Below, piece after piece: positions 1 through 63,750 of a DNA stretch of 64,000 nt; the stretch's first letter is position 1, and every line of letters begins with the position of its first letter. Position numbers and translations under genes: made by a program. The notes under the pieces are model-generated. The model saw nothing but the letters and a program-made list of their open reading frames with translations. It was not told the DNA's origin and did not search any database. Origin of the DNA: Escherichia phage EC.P2; sequence record PQ631072.1. One strand, given 5' to 3'.

Positions 1-57
1 TTGCTTTGGTTTATATCGACGCTCTTCCATATCAAGCATGATAAAAGGAGTTTTTAA

Positions 58-1068
58 ATGGCAGAAGAAAGAAATTATACAAAAGCTCCTGCACCCAATC
101 TAAACAGAGCATACAAACTGTTAATAGGTACAGCTACTAATACTAAAGAAAAAAGGACAAAAAATTCCTCTTTCAAATCTACAGTAGACTTAGATACTAA
201 ACTAGGGGATGCTAAAAAATCAACCCCTAATTTGTATGTTATTACGGAGCACCAAATATCTTTCACAATAAGAAAAGATAATAATAAAGATCCTAATCAA
301 GCCGAGATAACTATTTATAACCTAAGTGATGATACTGTTAACTATATTAACAAGGGTATTCGTAACAACTTGGCTGTTGCTTTAGCGGTAGGTTATGAAG
401 GTCAAGAGTTAATTATGATCTTTAAGGGAACGGTGCAATGGGTGAGTGATACCTTTAACAATACAGACAGACGTACAGTGTTACATTGTCTGGATGGTGG
501 TATTAACATCTCCGAAGCAAGGACAAGCAGAAGTTATCCGAAAGGTACAAAAGTAAGTAAGGTTGTTAAAGATTTAGTTAAAGATTTAGGTACTACAGAA
601 GGTAATATTCACGTAGATACAGAGAAAACTTTATCATCTGCAACAGCTATGTGTGGGAACACATCACATTACTTAGAAAGTATCTGTAAAGGTATTGATC
701 ATAATGTGTCAATACAAGACGGATCTGTTTACGTGACACCAAGATCACAAATGTCTAGTGCAAGATGTGCATATATTAGCGCAGAAACAGGTTTAATTGG
801 TAGTCCAGAACCTTTCCACAATGATATTAAACCGACACAAAAAGTAACCAAATCTTCTAAGAAAGCTAAAAAGCCTACAGATGGTGTTAAGTTCAGATGT
901 GAAATGAACGGTGCTATCTTACCAGAAAAAACTGTTTGGCTCAAGAGCCATAACTACGATGGTGGTTTTAAGGTAGTATCTGTTGTTCATACAGGAGATA
1001 GGGAAGGTAAAGACTGGACAACTGAAGTAGAGTCTGTATCTGTATCTGCAATTATTAAGAAGGGCTAG
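58..1068 (+). CDS. virion structural protein, putative baseplate hub / tail-associated protein
   Basis: 336 aa ORF, ATG at 58 with AAAGGAG 8 nt upstream; first gene of a tightly packed rightward structural operon directly upstream of the spike gene. No specific motif recognised. Confidence 0.35.
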   Translation: MAEERNYTKAPAPNLNRAYKLLIGTATNTKEKRTKNSSFKSTVDLDTKLGDAKKSTPNLYVITEHQISFTIRKDNNKDPNQAEITIYNLSDDTVNYINKGIRNNLAVALAVGYEGQELIMIFKGTVQWVSDTFNNTDRRTVLHCLDGGINISEARTSRSYPKGTKVSKVVKDLVKDLGTTEGNIHVDTEKTLSSATAMCGNTSHYLESICKGIDHNVSIQDGSVYVTPRSQMSSARCAYISAETGLIGSPEPFHNDIKPTQKVTKSSKKAKKPTDGVKFRCEMNGAILPEKTVWLKSHNYDGGFKVVSVVHTGDREGKDWTTEVESVSVSAIIKKG

Positions 1069-2913: not shown

Positions 2914-5789
2914 TGTCAAGAATTAAGCACAGAATTGACAATGTTTTCCAACTGATCGATGGACATATTCAGTTCTTAGATCGTAATACAGGTTTAACTG
3001 TAGATCCTACAGTGCAACACTATGTATTAAACCCACAAAACGTTCTAGCTAATAACAGACACTTTATAAACTGGACTGCTCAAGAAGGGCAACCAAACGG
3101 GGATGCTACAACAGAAGGTCAATCCGTGCTTATTCTTGGTTGCGCTTATGCATACCTGGCTTCCGGCGATACAAAGTATTTAGACTCTGCTAAAAAATAT
3201 TGGCAAGCCTATATAGATTACTTCTTTGGTGGTCAGCCTATTCCAGACCCGCCAGCAAAATATCGCCCTAACTGGATTATTAACGGTAAAGAACCACGTC
3301 TTGCACACTATCCTCTTACAGATGATGGCTACCCTACACACGGAGGTTTTAAGGGTAGCTTAATGACGTGGACTAACGGTAGAACAGTTATTCCTCATGG
3401 TGCTCCTCATTGGGGAGAATACCTTGACAAAGCATGGTTTGCTTTTAATGGTAATCTAGGATGGAACTCTGTAAACGCTACAGTATATGCTGTTAATGCA
3501 GATGGAACAACAGATTGGTCTAAGAATGGAGATCAATGGGACGTTGATTGGATCATTGATCGTCTAGGACGTAAAGTTGATTGGGATGGAAATATCTTAG
3601 AAGAAGGTTTTCCAACATCTCAATACGGAACAGTTCAACTAAAAAATACTTCTGTAAACGGTACATATAAATTTAACTACGCGACTTGTAACCCTGTTGA
3701 ACACGGTGGTTATTTAATGGAGCGTAACACTATGTGGCATAACAGACCAGTTAACGTTCCGGTAGAAATGGGCTTTCAGGATAATGCGTCAGATGCTGAA
3801 ACTTGGTGGTGTGATGCTAATTACCTGATGTACCAAATTACAGGAGAAAGAAAATATTGGCTATGCTGGCAGTCTTCACTGTTAGTGTGTCAAGATTACT
3901 CAAACATTGATATGTTTGATAAATTCTTCCGTAAGTCTACATATGCAACTATCCCGTTTACAGATGGCATCTCTTACGATTATTCGTATCCATCTACAGC
4001 AATACCTAAATATTCAAGAGATACTTTAGGTTATATTGTTATTAGACAAGATGTTGCTGCTCAAACAACATTAGAACAGCAAGCCATTTGGTTTAAAGTT
4101 GATCAGAACTCTAAGTTACGAGTTCAGTTTCAAGGTGTAGATGACGCAGGACATGGTATTCTTTTCCGTCCAGAGTTGGAACTAAGTAAGACCAAAGATG
4201 AAAATAACACAGTAACTTACCGCTGTGGCTTACCACTAGGTACAGCTAATATGACAAGCATGGATATTCCACTATCCAGCTTTATGAGAAGTACCCCTCC
4301 AAGTGGTGGAACATATATTATCGCAGATCCGCGAATTATTGTTGACTGGGGTGGCAATACTGTGGTACAATTTAAGTATGTAACAGGTATTGCTGGAACT
4401 AATAATGACCAGATTGTTACTGCATCAATGGATACGGATGGTGGCATTACTGTTGGTTTTTGGTTAACTCCTACATCAAAAGCTAATGTTAAGTCTATTA
4501 CATATAGAACATATGAAGATGACTTTAACATGACTATCACGGATGCTCAAGGTTGGAGATGGTGGGCTATGCTTCCTAAAACGCAAGGGGCATGGAGTAC
4601 GAAGACTTTATCAGCTTCTGATTTTAAGTTAAGTGCTTACCAGCCTAATCATCCAGAAACAGATCCTAAACCTTCAGCAATAAATCTTACTGCGGTAGAT
4701 CAGGTAAATTTAGTTCTCGATACGGCTCCTGTCAATGGTTTAACAGGAACAATAGATTTCTATTGTATTAACGATGTACCTGAAAGATATTCGTCATCTT
4801 CTGGTGATGATTATACCATGTACTTCCGTATCACTGTACAGGCTTCAAGTCCTCATACTGCTAAGTTAGGTGATTGTACTATTATTGACTATAAGTTAAA
4901 TAGTCTTAATTACACACCAGGAATAATTCCATTCTCTAATATCAGTGACCCAAACACTGCATTGTATGATGGCTGGCGTGGTATTCCATACCCAGGATAC
5001 CAATACCCTTCCTTATACTGTTTTGCAGGTAGAGATATTGATTGGACACGTTTAAACAACAGTATTGATTTCTTGTATGATGCTCAAATGTGGTTTTATA
5101 ACACGTTTGATCCTGTGATGCCTGGGCCTATGGCACAAGCATATGTGTGGGATCGTTGGGATGCAAGAAAATACGGTGAACCTAATACGTTTACAATGAA
5201 ACACTGGAATGAAAAAGCGTGGGATGGTTATGAAGCTCGTGCATTCTACTGTGCTTGTCATGCTGTATACGAACTTGTACAAAGAGGAGAAACACCTCCT
5301 GAAAAACTAGTAACTGTTTGTAAAAATTGGATCAACTACCTTAAATGGTTCCAAGACAATAATGATGGAAGAACACCAACTATCTTTAATCCAGATGGTA
5401 CAGTTCTTGCACCTATAGATGACTTTACTAGTCATATGTCTGCACTGTTTATGGCGGGTTGTTCAATCATGGGCTTGGCAGGTTATGATTCACAAATTCC
5501 AAACATTGGTATTGTAGCAGACAGATGTTTTGATCTGATTCAGCAAAACTATATTGTGCTTTCCCCTAACCATCCGATGAATGGTTGCTGGAGTGTTGCA
5601 CCGCGTCCAGATTCAGATAACGGAATGTTCTTTGGTTTCCATGCTGGAGAACTATTACGTGGTTTTGGTTTATATGCCTTGTATCGTAAACTAAACCCTC
5701 AAAACGCTTTACCAATTTTGGATAACAGTAACATACCAACACTAACTGTTCTAACTATGAATGATATTAGTGTTGATGTAACCAAATAA
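2913..5789 (+). CDS. large virion structural protein (baseplate / fibre-associated, possible carbohydrate-active domain)
   Basis: 958 aa ORF in structural module; Trp/Tyr-rich, no catalytic motif confidently identified. Confidence 0.4.
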   Translation: MSRIKHRIDNVFQLIDGHIQFLDRNTGLTVDPTVQHYVLNPQNVLANNRHFINWTAQEGQPNGDATTEGQSVLILGCAYAYLASGDTKYLDSAKKYWQAYIDYFFGGQPIPDPPAKYRPNWIINGKEPRLAHYPLTDDGYPTHGGFKGSLMTWTNGRTVIPHGAPHWGEYLDKAWFAFNGNLGWNSVNATVYAVNADGTTDWSKNGDQWDVDWIIDRLGRKVDWDGNILEEGFPTSQYGTVQLKNTSVNGTYKFNYATCNPVEHGGYLMERNTMWHNRPVNVPVEMGFQDNASDAETWWCDANYLMYQITGERKYWLCWQSSLLVCQDYSNIDMFDKFFRKSTYATIPFTDGISYDYSYPSTAIPKYSRDTLGYIVIRQDVAAQTTLEQQAIWFKVDQNSKLRVQFQGVDDAGHGILFRPELELSKTKDENNTVTYRCGLPLGTANMTSMDIPLSSFMRSTPPSGGTYIIADPRIIVDWGGNTVVQFKYVTGIAGTNNDQIVTASMDTDGGITVGFWLTPTSKANVKSITYRTYEDDFNMTITDAQGWRWWAMLPKTQGAWSTKTLSASDFKLSAYQPNHPETDPKPSAINLTAVDQVNLVLDTAPVNGLTGTIDFYCINDVPERYSSSSGDDYTMYFRITVQASSPHTAKLGDCTIIDYKLNSLNYTPGIIPFSNISDPNTALYDGWRGIPYPGYQYPSLYCFAGRDIDWTRLNNSIDFLYDAQMWFYNTFDPVMPGPMAQAYVWDRWDARKYGEPNTFTMKHWNEKAWDGYEARAFYCACHAVYELVQRGETPPEKLVTVCKNWINYLKWFQDNNDGRTPTIFNPDGTVLAPIDDFTSHMSALFMAGCSIMGLAGYDSQIPNIGIVADRCFDLIQQNYIVLSPNHPMNGCWSVAPRPDSDNGMFFGFHAGELLRGFGLYALYRKLNPQNALPILDNSNIPTLTVLTMNDISVDVTK

Positions 5790-5797
5790 GGAAAATA

Positions 5798-7957
5798 ATG
5801 AAACAGGCTATTTTTACTGTAACTCGAAATACGAGAGTAAATGCCAGTTCATTCAGCTATAAGACCGTCGATGGAACGGCGGTCGCTGGTAGAGATTATG
5901 TAGCTAAACAGGGAACAGTAACGTTCCCTTCTGATGCAGATTCTGCTACTGTAGTGGTTGATGTATATGAACGTCCGGCAAACTCTTTAGATCTTTATTT
6001 TACTCTTGAGATTACTAGCATAAGTCAAAATAACATGATGATCAATGAAGAAATTCGTTGTGTTATTACGACTGATCAATCGAATACAACCCCGCTAACT
6101 TGGCCTGTTGTGAAGTCTAGAATGTTTGATCCTAAGTTTTGGACAATAGATTCTCAAGCAACAGAAAGTTGTTCTATTATCTCTAATGGTGATTCTTTCA
6201 CAGCAAGAATGGTTAATAGGACAGTGGCTGGTCTTGCTGGGATTATTTGGTCAACTTACGATAAATATGATCACAAAGGATTAGGCTACCAAGAACATTC
6301 TGACTTAAGTAAAGAGAAACTTTGGTTTAAAATGGAACTTAGTCAAGGTGTTCCTGGATTAAAAGAAGAAAAATTAATACCATCCTTAACAGTGACACTG
6401 AAGGATGAAACAGTTCATTATGTATCTCTAAACTTTTATGCAGAAGAAGTTTCAGAAGATGGTAAGACAGCAACAATCAAATTAGATTTCTCAAACTTAA
6501 AATCGGGGCCAGAAAATGATATTGTTGTTGACACTACACAAATAGATAATATGTTCTTCTCCTTGATCTCAACGAGGTATCAAGAAATTGAAGATATTAT
6601 TCCTGTAGACAATGAGGATCTTTCCTTTAAGTTTACCATACTGGAGCCTGATACTGGTTACAGTATGATGAATATGGGTAATTTAAATGTTCCAGCACAC
6701 ACCATAAGAATGTGTACATCTTATGATGATATGTATAACCTGACCCCAGAGCGAGTTATTTCTAACACCTACAGATTAGGTTATAGGGATATGATTAACC
6801 ACTATAATGGTATGTCACACTATTATCAGTTTAGTTGGGATGCTGGTTCTAATAAATGGGCTTTGAATAGAACAGAATATTTAAACCCAGCAACAGAAGC
6901 ATGGTTTGATAATTTCCACGCTAATGCAAAAGCTATGGGCTACACAGTAATGAATTCCTTAAGTTTTGAACTTATGAGTACAGTGTGTCCTGTAGAATGG
7001 GTACAACATGCTTGGAATGATGATCTTGCTGCTACAGGTTATGAGCCACCAAGTTATGTTTTATCTCCTTCAATTGATGAAGGGATGAATTATTTACAAG
7101 GTGTAATAAATAAGATAGCTTCTATATCCGCTGCTAATGATCTTCCAGTTATTATTCAGGTTGGTGAACCGTGGTGGTGGTATAACACAGCTACCAATCT
7201 ACCGTGTATTTATGATTATACAACCAAAGTTGCATTTAATAATGAAACTGGATTGTATGCACAAGATGTTGGTACAGTTAAAAATTATAAAACTGGTACA
7301 CCATATGATGAATATTATGCCTTCCTATCTAAAACATTAGGACTGCGTGTTGCTAAATTTGCAACAGATACCAGATTAGCATATCCTGGAGCTAAAGTTA
7401 CATTGTTACCATTTGTGCCATCCATTTTGGGTAATGGTATGATGGAGTTTGTTAACTTCCCTAAAGATTATTATATCCCAGAAAACTTTGACTTTTATTG
7501 TTCAGAATGTTATGATTGGTTGTTGGAAGGTAAGATGGAAAGATCTTTTGACGCTATCACAATACCTAATGAGCAACTAGGTTTTAGTTATGATAAGATA
7601 CATTATCTTGCAGGGTTTGTTCCAGATGCAACTCTAGCACCATTATATGGCTTTGATCCTGAATCAAACTATAGAACATATTTGTGGAAAATGATTATAG
7701 GCAATATTGTATTGAATGACCAGAAGTTTGTTGGTTTATATCAATACATATGGGCTTACCCGCAAATAATGCATGATTCAATAACTGTTCTTAATTCAAA
7801 ATCCCAAGTGTTTTATATGGGTAATGTGCCTTTGAATTGCTACTTGCAAGATATCACTCTTAAACAGGTAAATGTTGAGATTGCCACTATAAGTGGAATT
7901 ACATTAGCCACTAAATCTGGAGAAGATTTAGTAACAACACAAAAATTTTATATATAG
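5798..7957 (+). CDS. virion structural protein with N-terminal Calx-beta-like domain
   Basis: 719 aa; N-terminal segment VAGRDYVAKQGTVTFPSDADSATVVVDV resembles Calx-beta motif. Confidence 0.4.
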   Translation: MKQAIFTVTRNTRVNASSFSYKTVDGTAVAGRDYVAKQGTVTFPSDADSATVVVDVYERPANSLDLYFTLEITSISQNNMMINEEIRCVITTDQSNTTPLTWPVVKSRMFDPKFWTIDSQATESCSIISNGDSFTARMVNRTVAGLAGIIWSTYDKYDHKGLGYQEHSDLSKEKLWFKMELSQGVPGLKEEKLIPSLTVTLKDETVHYVSLNFYAEEVSEDGKTATIKLDFSNLKSGPENDIVVDTTQIDNMFFSLISTRYQEIEDIIPVDNEDLSFKFTILEPDTGYSMMNMGNLNVPAHTIRMCTSYDDMYNLTPERVISNTYRLGYRDMINHYNGMSHYYQFSWDAGSNKWALNRTEYLNPATEAWFDNFHANAKAMGYTVMNSLSFELMSTVCPVEWVQHAWNDDLAATGYEPPSYVLSPSIDEGMNYLQGVINKIASISAANDLPVIIQVGEPWWWYNTATNLPCIYDYTTKVAFNNETGLYAQDVGTVKNYKTGTPYDEYYAFLSKTLGLRVAKFATDTRLAYPGAKVTLLPFVPSILGNGMMEFVNFPKDYYIPENFDFYCSECYDWLLEGKMERSFDAITIPNEQLGFSYDKIHYLAGFVPDATLAPLYGFDPESNYRTYLWKMIIGNIVLNDQKFVGLYQYIWAYPQIMHDSITVLNSKSQVFYMGNVPLNCYLQDITLKQVNVEIATISGITLATKSGEDLVTTQKFYI

Positions 7958-61375: not shown

Positions 61376-62503
61376 ATGAAATACACGATTTATGGTGATA
61401 TTGTAAGTGTAAATAAAGATATGGGTGTGGAATCTAATTATCTTCCACCTGGATTCTATACTGTTAGTCGTGATCCCCTTGGCAATTATTTTTTAAGCCG
61501 TGGTAATCTAACAGGTGTACCGGATGTTCTGTATGGTGAAACAGAAAAACGAGCAAATCACGTTATCCGTACATTCCATCGCCGGAGTGCACAAGGTAAA
61601 AATACAGGTTTGCTTCTGACAGGAACTAAGGGCAGTGGTAAAACTATGTTAGCCAAGCTCATTAGTCGTGACCTTGTAGAAGAAGGTATTCCAACTATTA
61701 TGGTTACTCAAGCCTACAGTGATGCTAATTTCATTGAACTTATTAGCAAGATCACCGACAAAGCAGTGATTATTTTTGACGAGTTTGATAAAGTATATGA
61801 GAAGAAACAAGATCAAGAAGCACTTCTCACTTTGTTAGATGGTACTGGCAGTGGTAATAAACTGTTTATTCTAACTAAAAACAGTGGCTTTATCTCTGAA
61901 TTCTTTCTAAATCGTCCTAGTCGTGTGTTTTATAATTTTAATTATGATAAAATCTCACTAGAAACTATGATTGACTATTTAGATAAAAACCTGGATAACA
62001 AAGCACACTTTGATAATTTCCAAAGACTTTGGGATGTAAGTTTAGAGTTGTCCTTTGATGTGATCCAAGGTATAGTAGAAGAACTTAATTTCTACCCTGA
62101 TTTATCCTTTAAAGAATGCATCTCTATGATGGGCGTTTCTTTGGGTGGTGGTAATAAATGGGATATCAGTAGCGTTATTATTAATGGAAAACTTCAGAAA
62201 GTTAGCTGGGTATCTAGTTGGCATAACTTTACACCTGCAATCTTTTTAGGTGGCTCGTGCACACTAGACGTGTACTTGTCATCTCCAAGTGATGCAGATT
62301 CTAAAGAAGCCCTTGCTAATAGCTCTTACGTGGTTTTTGATGATGAAGGCGATGCTCGAATTCCGTTGAATGCGACAAAAATGAAAGCAGACCTTATCAC
62401 AGGCGGTAAAATCGTTGTGTTTAGTGATGATCCAGAAGATTCTTTCCGTATTGTTCTGGAACCAACTATCACCAATGGTGCAACTTTGGCAAGTGTGTTT
62501 TAA
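61376..62503 (+). CDS. AAA+/P-loop ATPase (paralogue B)
   Basis: 375 aa; Walker A GTKGSGKT, Walker B IIFDEFDK; shares many blocks with 45198..46358 (e.g. LLTLLDG, LTKN-G, FL-NRPSR). Confidence 0.65.
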   Translation: MKYTIYGDIVSVNKDMGVESNYLPPGFYTVSRDPLGNYFLSRGNLTGVPDVLYGETEKRANHVIRTFHRRSAQGKNTGLLLTGTKGSGKTMLAKLISRDLVEEGIPTIMVTQAYSDANFIELISKITDKAVIIFDEFDKVYEKKQDQEALLTLLDGTGSGNKLFILTKNSGFISEFFLNRPSRVFYNFNYDKISLETMIDYLDKNLDNKAHFDNFQRLWDVSLELSFDVIQGIVEELNFYPDLSFKECISMMGVSLGGGNKWDISSVIINGKLQKVSWVSSWHNFTPAIFLGGSCTLDVYLSSPSDADSKEALANSSYVVFDDEGDARIPLNATKMKADLITGGKIVVFSDDPEDSFRIVLEPTITNGATLASVF

Positions 62504-62516
62504 GTAAGCCAGCAAA

Positions 62517-62543
62517 TAAAAACCCGCTTCGGCGGGTTTTCTT
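62517..62543 (+). terminator. rho-independent terminator
   Basis: AAAAACCCGCTTCGGCGGGTTTTCTTG. Confidence 0.7.
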
Positions 62544-62577
62544 GTATTGATGCCAGATTTAATAAAAGGAGTAGTAG

Positions 62578-63750
62578 ATGGTAGCACTAAAATCATGGGA
62601 ACAATATAAAGAAGAATTAATACCCCTTGCTAAAAATCACAATATTCAAATCTTGGGTTATGTTGGTGAATGGAAAGGGAACAAGACTAAACTTAAGCTA
62701 TCTTGCCCTAAACATGGAGAGTGGAACACCACGAACATTAATGATTTTAAGAAGGGACGTGGTTGTCCTATCTGTTCTGGTAAGAAGCCGTTAACATGGG
62801 AAACAGAATTGCCGATCTTGGAAGAGATAGCACAGAAGAGGGGGTATCAGGTGTTAGGGTACGTGGGAGAATGGAAAGGGAATAAAACAAAACTTGATTT
62901 GTTGTGTCATTGTGGTAATAAATGGGATACTACAAGTATTAACAATTTTAAACGTGGTAGCGGTTGTCCACAATGTAAGAGGGAGAGACAAACAATGTCC
63001 GACGATCAACATATTGCAGATTTCTTTTCTACAGGGGAATTTAAGGAAGGCACTATCTTCACCAATACAGGGAAACGTAACAAGCGTGATGCAGTATGGA
63101 TGGTTGAGTGTCCTGTTTGCTCCCATGATGAATATGTTCAAGCAGGTGTTTGTGATGGTAAATTTTACTCTGCAGGACATAACCTTAAACAAGGGTATAT
63201 TCCGTGTCGTTGTGGGAACTATCAGTATACAGAAGACCAGATCACCTATAGGGTAAAAAAGGAAGTAGAAGGGAAAGGGTATGTCTGGGTAGATTGGATT
63301 ACCAAACCCTCTTCTATAGGTAAGTTTAAATATCTTTGTCTTGTGCATGGTGAGCAGATAGGGAGTGCTCGTAATTTATTAAGCCTCGGTCAAGGTTGTC
63401 CACAGTGTGCTGGTCATAATCAACAGCAATTATATATTAATATTGTTAAAGATAATGATATTATAGTTGCTCTTAAGTTTGGTATATCTAAAGATAGCGA
63501 TAGACGATTAAACGGTCAAAATAGCCGTAATCTGTTTTTTATGGAGCGTATTTGTTTATATGATTTTAGCACAGTGAAACAATGTAGGGCTGCTGAAAGA
63601 GCTATAAAGAAAAAATTAAAAACTGGTATTTTAACGGCAAGAGAGTTGAAAGATGGTTATACAGAAACAGTAAGTGTTTCTGATTTGGAAAATCTTCAAA
63701 AAATTATTACACAATATGGTGGCAAATTAGTATACAGTAAGGAGATGTAA
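62578..63750 (+). CDS. Zn-ribbon-repeat protein with C-terminal GIY-YIG-like (T5orf172-type) domain; homing-endonuclease-like
   Basis: 390 aa; two near-identical modules (ILGYVGEWKGNKTKLKLSCPKHGEWNTTNINDFKKGRGCPICSGKK / VLGYVGEWKGNKTKLDLLCHCGNKWDTTSINNFKRGSGCPQCKRER), further CxxC pairs, then YINIVKDNDIIVALKFGISKDSDRRL. Confidence 0.5.
   Translation: MVALKSWEQYKEELIPLAKNHNIQILGYVGEWKGNKTKLKLSCPKHGEWNTTNINDFKKGRGCPICSGKKPLTWETELPILEEIAQKRGYQVLGYVGEWKGNKTKLDLLCHCGNKWDTTSINNFKRGSGCPQCKRERQTMSDDQHIADFFSTGEFKEGTIFTNTGKRNKRDAVWMVECPVCSHDEYVQAGVCDGKFYSAGHNLKQGYIPCRCGNYQYTEDQITYRVKKEVEGKGYVWVDWITKPSSIGKFKYLCLVHGEQIGSARNLLSLGQGCPQCAGHNQQQLYINIVKDNDIIVALKFGISKDSDRRLNGQNSRNLFFMERICLYDFSTVKQCRAAERAIKKKLKTGILTARELKDGYTETVSVSDLENLQKIITQYGGKLVYSKEM

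Follow-up and report, generated by a model that had tools for sequence, protein, structure and literature searches.

Phage ICP1 and other phages encode putative homing endonucleases in which N-terminal CapR-like zinc-finger regions precede a C-terminal T5orf172 domain (PMC8096241). Tandem repeats of the CapR/DUF723/DUF4379 type are frequent in this family, and recombination takes place between modules, genes, and phages (PMC10448857). The zinc-finger domain (PF21817) bears the name of CapR, the capsid-operon repressor of the Vibrio cholerae satellite PLE, whose binding to DNA needs four cysteines, as seen in electrophoretic mobility shift assays with Cys-to-Ser mutants (PMC8096241). The T5orf172 domain belongs to the GIY-YIG superfamily; ICP1 Odn (Gp88), which carries a catalytic domain of this type, performs double-strand cleavage of DNA that is abolished in the E180A variant, and represents a homing-type nuclease that the phage retains to its own advantage (PMC8263062). 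Nuclease activity is established for this one member of the T5orf172 family, and the CapR-type members of ICP1 and of coliphages count as putative nucleases. Here, we describe a gene of this kind from Escherichia phage EC.P2 (PQ631072.1). The analyzed stretch of 64,000 nucleotides (nt), denoted the window, shows 100% identity with Escherichia phage JohannJBalmer (MZ501084.1), a phi92-like myovirus (Stephanstirmvirinae, Justusliebigvirus) of the BASEL collection. The gene in question, an open reading frame (ORF) at 62578-63750, is listed there as bas62_0105 with the product name "hypothetical protein". An earlier reading made from the sequence alone had proposed it as a candidate free-standing homing endonuclease; the ORF was delimited exactly, on the plus strand, with 390 aa and an ATG preceded by AAGGAG. 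The gene is a member of the already described family, with the known architecture of repeated zinc-finger modules followed by T5orf172. At slightly better than even chances, we regard it as a site-specific endonuclease of the "T5orf172 homing endonuclease" family that is fixed in its genomic slot, swaps its modules, and serves in the competition of phage against phage.

The N-terminal part is built from zinc-finger modules. The Pfam model of the CapR homology domain (PF21817) matches the protein in four stretches (E = 3.1e-43, 146 bits versus a cutoff of 24.2) and is matched by 51 of 52 homologs as well; weaker matches to DUF4379 and DUF723 overlap in the module region. A full-length AlphaFold model based on 32 homologs (mean predicted local distance difference test, pLDDT, of 87.9) consists of four separate folded units in this part of the chain, joined by low-confidence linkers (Table 1), and its predicted template modeling score (pTM) of 0.45 is as expected for beads on a string. 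A Foldseek search of this multi-domain model against the PDB yielded noise only at that pTM, and no solved structure of a CapR module was found. Each module harbors four Cys/His residues arranged in CxxC, CxC, or CxxH pairs, with His replacing one Cys in two of the modules, and these residues are conserved in at least 90%, or in all, of the homologs. The published order of the pairs, CxxC...CxC, is present in module 3 and reversed in modules 1, 2, and 4. Two nearly identical modules of about 45 residues had been reported in the sequence-only reading. The repeat itself is well founded, with 33 of 60 residues shared by aa 7-66 and 74-133 (z = 30; the observed score was reached in 0 of 500 shuffles), but the modules number four, and "nearly identical" overstates the resemblance: the 40-aa core of modules 1 and 2 agrees at 27 positions in the protein and at 63% in the DNA, where a single stretch of 42 nt attains 81%. 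This moderate identity at both levels points to an old duplication. With 31% identity (z = 8.4), module 4 can be recognized as a remote copy of module 1; module 3 showed no significant similarity to any of the other three in pairwise comparison.

Table 1. Coordinates of the nuclease gene, its domains, and adjacent features in the window.
Feature	Position (nt)	Position (aa)	Strand	Evidence and remarks
AAA ATPase gene, upstream neighbor	61376-62503			Pfam
Intrinsic-terminator-like hairpin after the ATPase gene	62519-62540		+	9-bp stem, 5 GC pairs, T tract
Shine-Dalgarno sequence of the nuclease ORF	62566-62571		+	AAGGAG, 6 nt before ATG; from sequence
Whole ORF, CapR-zinc-finger/T5orf172 nuclease	62578-63750	1-390	+	390 aa; bas62_0105 of JohannJBalmer
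Module 1	62596-62775	7-66	+	Putative ligands C43, H46, C63, C66; Pfam, AlphaFold model
Module 2	62797-62982	74-135	+	Putative ligands C110, C112, C130, C133; paralog of module 1
Module 3	63001-63222	142-215	+	CPVC...CRC, putative ligands C178, C181, C210, C212; longer divergent variant
Module 4	63232-63417	219-280	+	Putative ligands C254, H257, C274, C277; AlphaFold model
T5orf172/GIY-YIG-fold nuclease domain	63427-63747	284-390	+	Pfam, model, invariant residues
Shine-Dalgarno sequence of the NADAR gene	63739-63744		+	AAGGAG inside the last nuclease codons; from sequence
NADAR/YbiA-like gene, downstream neighbor	from 63751		+	Start ATG directly after the nuclease TAA; Pfam

The C-terminal domain was assigned to T5orf172 (PF10544) with 20.6 bits in a full-length search and 22.6 bits when the domain was searched alone (cutoff 20), and the 390-aa protein matches the PHROG family phrog_681, "endonuclease", with 3.7e-87. 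Orthologs in phi92, phAPEC8, SKA64, and others are annotated in GenBank as "endonuclease" or "putative homing endonuclease". Structure strengthens the borderline Pfam signal: a model of the C-terminal 116 residues from an alignment of 52 sequences (pLDDT 92.9) adopts a beta-beta-alpha-beta-alpha core, i.e. a GIY-YIG-type fold. Foldseek retrieved 62 matches at E <= 0.001 among predicted viral structures, the names of which include CapR homology domain-containing, GIY-YIG domain-containing, homing endonuclease, and T5 Orf172 domain-containing. Invariant in the 52 homologs, down to about 27% identity, are Y286, K300, G302, R310, Q314, E340, D359, G360, E363, and T364. Judged by its position in the modeled fold, Y286 in strand 1 would be the GIY Tyr, K300-x-G302 in strand 2 would represent the YIG motif, and R310 in helix 1 the catalytic Arg, while E340, in the helix after strand 3, appears to occupy the place of I-TevI E75.

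In the second motif, the protein has K-F-G where Y-I/V-G would be canonical; Lys300 in place of the second Tyr is common to all 52 aligned homologs, and the His/Tyr of helix 1 of canonical GIY-YIG proteins is absent. Both deviations would fit a regulator that binds DNA and whose nuclease-like domain is not catalytic; such a protein would occupy phage or host promoters without cutting, comparable to the CapR repressor or to autorepression by I-TevI; CapR-type modules do bind DNA and repress transcription in PLE (PMC8096241). This explanation is considered quite improbable: CapR is devoid of a T5orf172 domain, which is here the best conserved part of the protein and retains an invariant Tyr, Arg, and Glu; the exchange of Tyr for Lys is common to all homologs aligned; and Odn cleaves DNA although its helix 1 is likewise devoid of the His/Tyr (PMC8263062).

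The protein shares its layout of repeated zinc-finger modules followed by T5orf172 with ICP1 Gp174, Gp165, Gp121, Gp53, and Gp130, and with the set of Dunham/Barth et al. 2023. By tblastn, it is 28% identical to ICP1 "putative homing endonuclease" genes over 82% of the query. As in the ICP1 T5orf172 set, the number of repeats varies through recombination of modules, and domains are swapped (PMC10448857). ICP1 harbors several paralogs, which are often variably present and lie next to essential genes, whereas a single, fixed copy is found here between an AAA ATPase gene and a NADAR gene. PLE CapR, from which the zinc-finger domain has its name, is a repressor with a single DNA-binding region and no nuclease domain; in contrast, four modules and a conserved nuclease domain are present here. 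With Odn the protein has the type of catalytic domain in common, but it differs by its zinc-finger binding array and in that no host or satellite counterpart was found. Compared with I-TevI, the order of domains is reversed, as the nuclease domain of I-TevI is N-terminal and that of the present protein C-terminal; the DNA-binding modules bear no relation to the I-TevI helix-turn-helix, and significant sequence similarity to I-TevI was not observed; a further difference from I-TevI and the Seg proteins of T4 is the Lys at the second motif Tyr. The T4 seg genes are sporadic, whereas the gene described here is fixed. SLX1 and HIGLE, eukaryotic structure-specific repair nucleases of the GIY-YIG type with a RING/PHD partner domain, show 14-16% identity and resemble the protein in fold only. 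The supplementary tables of PMC10448857 do not list the phi92, alia, and phAPEC8 copies of the gene and mention Muut only as a genome. The close relatives Inny, Muut, and Mt1B1_P17 encode a second, Odn-like T5orf172 gene with a RepA_N domain, proposed to act against satellites (PMC10448857). In BFVD, a 328-aa protein of Mt1B1_P17 displays the same nuclease fold.

The modules are the part of the gene that changes. Compared with five congeners, JohannJBalmer shows 92-100% nucleotide identity in both flanks and in the nuclease-domain part (63440-63750), and identity falls to 0-90% only from 62578 to about 63400, where the modules differ by phage. The divergent part comprises modules 3-4 in phi92, modules 1-2 in A145, and module 1 in muut; KKE7M is devoid of module 1, and alia possesses an extra module. 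Module 1 is thus the most variable one between phages, replaced in two and absent in a third, and module 3 of phi92 is a replacement allele with 55-60% identity. Synonymous divergence (dS) of the nuclease domain (0.08-0.15) equals that of the ATPase and NADAR genes (0.06-0.14), and the ratio of non-synonymous to synonymous divergence (dN/dS) in this domain amounts to 0.15-0.43. In the divergent modules, dS ranges from 0.4 to more than 2 with a dN/dS of about 0.2-0.5. Since their dS is high in comparison with the flanks, the divergence of the modules did not arise in situ; old alleles entered by recombination. Positive selection was rejected as the main cause of module divergence, given that synonymous and non-synonymous divergence are elevated to the same extent. 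Three records designated "Campylobacter phage" (UNVERIFIED; A145 MG065645.1, MG065689.1, MG065650.1) are at this locus 98% identical to phi92- or phAPEC8-like E. coli phages, so the host label is doubtful.

The exchange is not confined to one genus. Between genera, DNA identity is 70% for the ATPase gene and 64% for the NADAR gene, as against 87-96% for module segments of 105-191 nt. The core of module 2 of JohannJBalmer (62865-62969) and module 1 of phAPEC8, a phage of the other genus, are 93% identical in DNA, and nt 1-191 of the KKE7M gene are 95% identical to nt 1-191 of that of phAPEC8. The terminator, the leader, and the start of the ORF are far more alike between genera than is the 3' end of the ATPase gene. 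Base composition follows the same division of the gene: the module region (62578-63420) has a GC content of 40.0% (33.8% at third codon positions, GC3), the nuclease-domain part (63421-63750) of 29.4% (GC3 19.1%), at a window mean of 37.6% with a standard deviation of 1.9 for gene-sized windows. Such a sharp break within one gene suggests that its two halves have different histories. Taken together, the nuclease gene is under purifying selection, undergoes mosaic exchange between genera, and is fixed in its position.

Fixation became evident from a synteny search in which the two flanking genes, joined after removal of the ORF, served as the query. All 55 Justusliebigvirus records with flanks at least 95% identical contain 1.06-1.5 kb between the ATPase and NADAR genes, and an equal number of records, 55, hold a homolog with at least 60% identity; in the representative loci fetched, the ORF encodes 329, 390, 396, 403, or 465 aa. 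In Phapecoctavirus, a homolog of 335-486 aa is located directly 3' of the ATPase gene in 64 of 71 matching records (64 of about 65 with both flanks); the others are mostly divergent phages that match with one flank only. In JohannJBalmer, the gene is single-copy. Relatives without the ORF had been suggested as a synteny check in the sequence-only reading, together with conservation in all relatives and missing nuclease-domain support as the outcome that would speak against it. Conservation holds for the close relatives only, and the nuclease domain is supported. Clean absence is confined to deeper lineages: the Klebsiella phage FKP3 contains an N6/N4 methyltransferase gene, a small ORF, and a gene for a DUF6939 protein after the ATPase gene, and the IMG/VR contig L016, with a 74% identical ATPase, a small ORF and a DUF6939 protein gene. 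The IMG/VR scan with the ATPase protein gave four loci only, including L016. The slot is filled by nuclease and NADAR genes in Justusliebigvirus and by nuclease, two small ORFs, and NADAR in Phapecoctavirus, where the nuclease ORF and the one after it share 7 nt (positions 5894-5900 of locus L007).

The sole absence among close relatives is in EP57 (OR544956.1), where a deletion of 1250 bp (at 3630-3640 of locus L012) removes the nuclease gene together with the last 10 nt of the ATPase gene and creates a fusion ORF of 501 aa from ATPase and gp012. This record also displays a second deletion of 372 bp, many tiny annotated ORFs, and a genome about 20 kb shorter than those of relatives. Either the phage has undergone multiple deletions or the assembly is poor. 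As a natural empty-site allele it was rejected because the stop codon of the ATPase gene is lost, further deletions are present, and its ORFs are fragmented. One might nevertheless read the gene as the decaying remnant of a homing endonuclease, without function and kept for the ribosome-binding site of the next gene. The fixed state with no empty sites left to invade, a dN/dS of 0.15-0.5 compared with 0.01-0.12 in neighboring genes, and the EP57 record would be in line with decay. This is the least probable of the explanations considered, and very improbable in itself: in both genera, every other allele examined has a full-length ORF, catalytic-type residues are invariant and the zinc ligands invariant or nearly so, the dN/dS of the nuclease domain is well below 1, and the EP57 record provides no natural empty allele. 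Invariant catalytic-type residues and intact ORFs make both a purely regulatory role and the decay of a remnant unlikely.

The hairpin upstream of the gene had been located at 62517-62543 in the sequence-only reading, and it was indeed found, with a GC-rich 9-bp stem and a T tract (Table 1); the NADAR gene that follows on the same strand was identified correctly, too. In combination, terminator and gene order had been taken as typical of an intergenic insertion, an interpretation that is not supported: the gene occupies the same slot in 55/55 and 64/~65 relatives, and the hairpin follows the ATPase stop codon in all five lineages compared (this phage, phi92, phAPEC8, FKP3, and L016). Its stem exhibits compensatory changes between lineages (CCCGC/GCGGG versus GCCCC/GGGGC), and the homology between carriers and non-carriers of the nuclease stops just past the T tract. 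The slot is also seen at 4550-4680 of locus L011 and at 6128-6168 of L016, corresponding to 62519-62577 of the window. Judged from these comparisons, the terminator is ancestral to the ATPase operon and forms the upstream bound of a variable cargo slot in Stephanstirmvirinae-like phages. As a mark of nuclease insertion it was rejected because it is also present after the ATPase gene in lineages without the nuclease.

Outside this slot, the family has a wide distribution, with tblastn matches in 513 phage records at 927 places. The FKP3 homolog is encoded on the opposite strand, some 2 kb 5' of the ATPase gene (34% identity, E = 1.6e-23), that of KP2025 lies among small ORFs (47% identity), that of KB57 (550 aa, five modules) at an unrelated locus, and that of phiTE between the genes for the tail assembly chaperone and the tape measure protein, after a terminator. 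As far as these locations indicate, the family is mobile over long time scales, yet the copy in this slot is fixed. Of the marks of a free-standing homing endonuclease gene, a stand-alone gene of the family and movement across loci were observed; sporadic presence with an empty site was not. The family-level call is correct, since the architecture, the annotation of orthologs, and the PHROG 681 assignment fit the described T5orf172 homing endonuclease family.

A fixed and intact cutter may also have been domesticated. The nuclease would then resemble ICP1 Odn and cut an enemy or a resource, e.g. a satellite or other mobile element, an unrelated phage, or host DNA, and the turnover of modules would track these targets. 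Fixation at one locus in two genera, an intact ORF under purifying selection, the embedding in an operon with the ribosome-binding site of the next gene inside the coding sequence, and a hypervariable DNA-binding region next to a conserved catalytic domain are all compatible with domestication, for which Odn and the RepA_N-T5orf172 genes of coliphages Inny, Muut, and Mt1B1_P17, proposed to act against E. coli satellites, constitute precedents (PMC8263062, PMC10448857). Odn and CapR share their binding domains with a satellite, whereas 5,426 complete E. coli genomes, searched by blastn, contained no match to the gene or to its modules and thus gave no sign of a satellite or prophage counterpart. 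Among plasmids, tblastn detected distant relatives only, including Cupriavidus proteins named "GIY-YIG nuclease family protein". No candidate target was found, PADLOC yielded no match, and the variation of modules reflects swaps of old alleles between phages, which fits allele competition equally well. Domestication is therefore regarded as rather unlikely, although it is the strongest of the alternatives. For an intact nuclease under selection without empty sites, competition between alleles or lineages, by homing or marker exclusion where carriers of different alleles meet, and Odn-like domestication are both plausible. We favor competition, since modules are exchanged with other phage alleles and neither a host nor a satellite counterpart turned up.

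For a site-specific endonuclease engaged in phage competition, the following course of events is proposed. The four tandem CapR-type modules, arranged like beads on a string, would read an extended DNA site, and the C-terminal T5orf172 domain with its GIY-YIG fold would cut near the bound site, most likely by means of Y286, R310, Glu340 and/or Glu363, and a divalent metal. The gene is presumably of selfish (homing) origin and, in Stephanstirmvirinae of E. coli, has become a fixed single-copy resident of the slot 3' of the ATPase terminator, where it would be co-expressed with NADAR at a low level, probably via terminator read-through. Its modules, which would determine specificity, are continually replaced, deleted, duplicated, and shuffled by recombination, including recombination with alleles of the sister genus. 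The most likely role lies in competition during co-infection: genomes with a different allele or with none would be cut, and the break would be repaired from the genome of the cutter. We infer DNA binding, cleavage, the target, and the outcome in homing or exclusion. An extension of this idea, which we deem unlikely but not negligible, is that a conserved cutter and an exchangeable zinc-finger cassette form a fixed "specificity-shuffling" nuclease of phi92/phAPEC8-like phages that is no longer a simple selfish element. Each module would read a short DNA stretch, and swaps, losses, and duplications of modules among phages that infect the same cell, also those of different genera, would redirect the nuclease in a continuing arms race of phages with other phages or with satellites.

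Several observations weigh against an endonuclease that competes between phages. The T5orf172 score is marginal, the match spans only positions 10-69 of the 101 of the profile, and no more than 26 of the 52 homologs pass at E <= 0.01 (seven match the sister model MUG113). The canonical GIY-YIG model PF01541 does not match at E <= 1; the earlier comparison of the C-terminal segment with GIY-YIG/T5orf172 nuclease cores hence holds for T5orf172 and fails for the canonical model. By its sequence, the protein is a relative of the canonical GIY-YIG family at the superfamily level only, and NCBIfam returned nothing above noise. Alignment of the nuclease-domain profile with the catalytic domain of I-TevI by hhalign gave a non-significant probability of 0.5% (known residue numbers agreed with the I-TevI sequence used), so the putative catalytic residues are mapped onto Y6, R27, and E75 of I-TevI by topology only. 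Searches of PDB sequences with the full-family profile and with a profile of the nuclease domain alone produced no relevant match and no solved relative. E340 and E363 are both candidates for the metal-binding or catalytic Glu, and either may match Odn E180. A fixed homing gene is expected to decay, which this gene does not, and domestication fits this as well as homing does. None of the 55 Justusliebigvirus and about 65 Phapecoctavirus records provides a clean empty-site allele, which leaves classical homing without an obvious present substrate. The position of the NADAR ribosome-binding site within the nuclease ORF, a tight coupling, argues for long residence rather than recent movement. Finally, a strong terminator precedes the ORF without a recognizable promoter, and expression is predicted only.

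In its immediate surroundings, the nuclease ORF is an independent, stand-alone gene with its own Shine-Dalgarno sequence, placed between the ATPase and NADAR genes, and the nuclease and NADAR genes are tightly coupled (Table 1). No sigma-70-like promoter was found between the terminator and the nuclease ATG. The product of the upstream gene is an "ATPase" according to PHROG 2376 and is extremely conserved (dN/dS 0.01-0.02). In several records, the same gene is labeled "FtsH-like protease" or "ATPase or Zn metalloprotease"; among the best 25 of 37 Pfam matches, there was no peptidase domain, only AAA/P-loop ATPase models. The records of alia and muut contain annotated repeat regions in a non-coding stretch of about 800 bp 3' of NADAR (positions 5345-5612 of locus L004 and 4891-4975 of L006). 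The same stretch in JohannJBalmer, beyond the end of the window, comprises several hairpins resembling terminators as well as promoter-like sites, on both strands.

As to annotation, the "hypothetical protein" bas62_0105 of JohannJBalmer, a BASEL phage in wide use as a reference, may now be named a CapR-zinc-finger/T5orf172 (GIY-YIG-fold) endonuclease. The locus offers a natural series in which the same nuclease domain is found at the same place with three, four, or five modules, variously combined, in more than 100 sequenced, cultivable coliphages. Cleavage of DNA by a CapR-type T5orf172 protein and the way in which a string of modules sets target specificity would thus be directly testable in E. 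coli. A homing-type gene can, as this case illustrates, be fixed in its position and yet evolve by recombination confined to its specificity region. If the modules possess a decipherable recognition code, the series of three-, four-, and five-module alleles at one locus would be a ready system to learn it.

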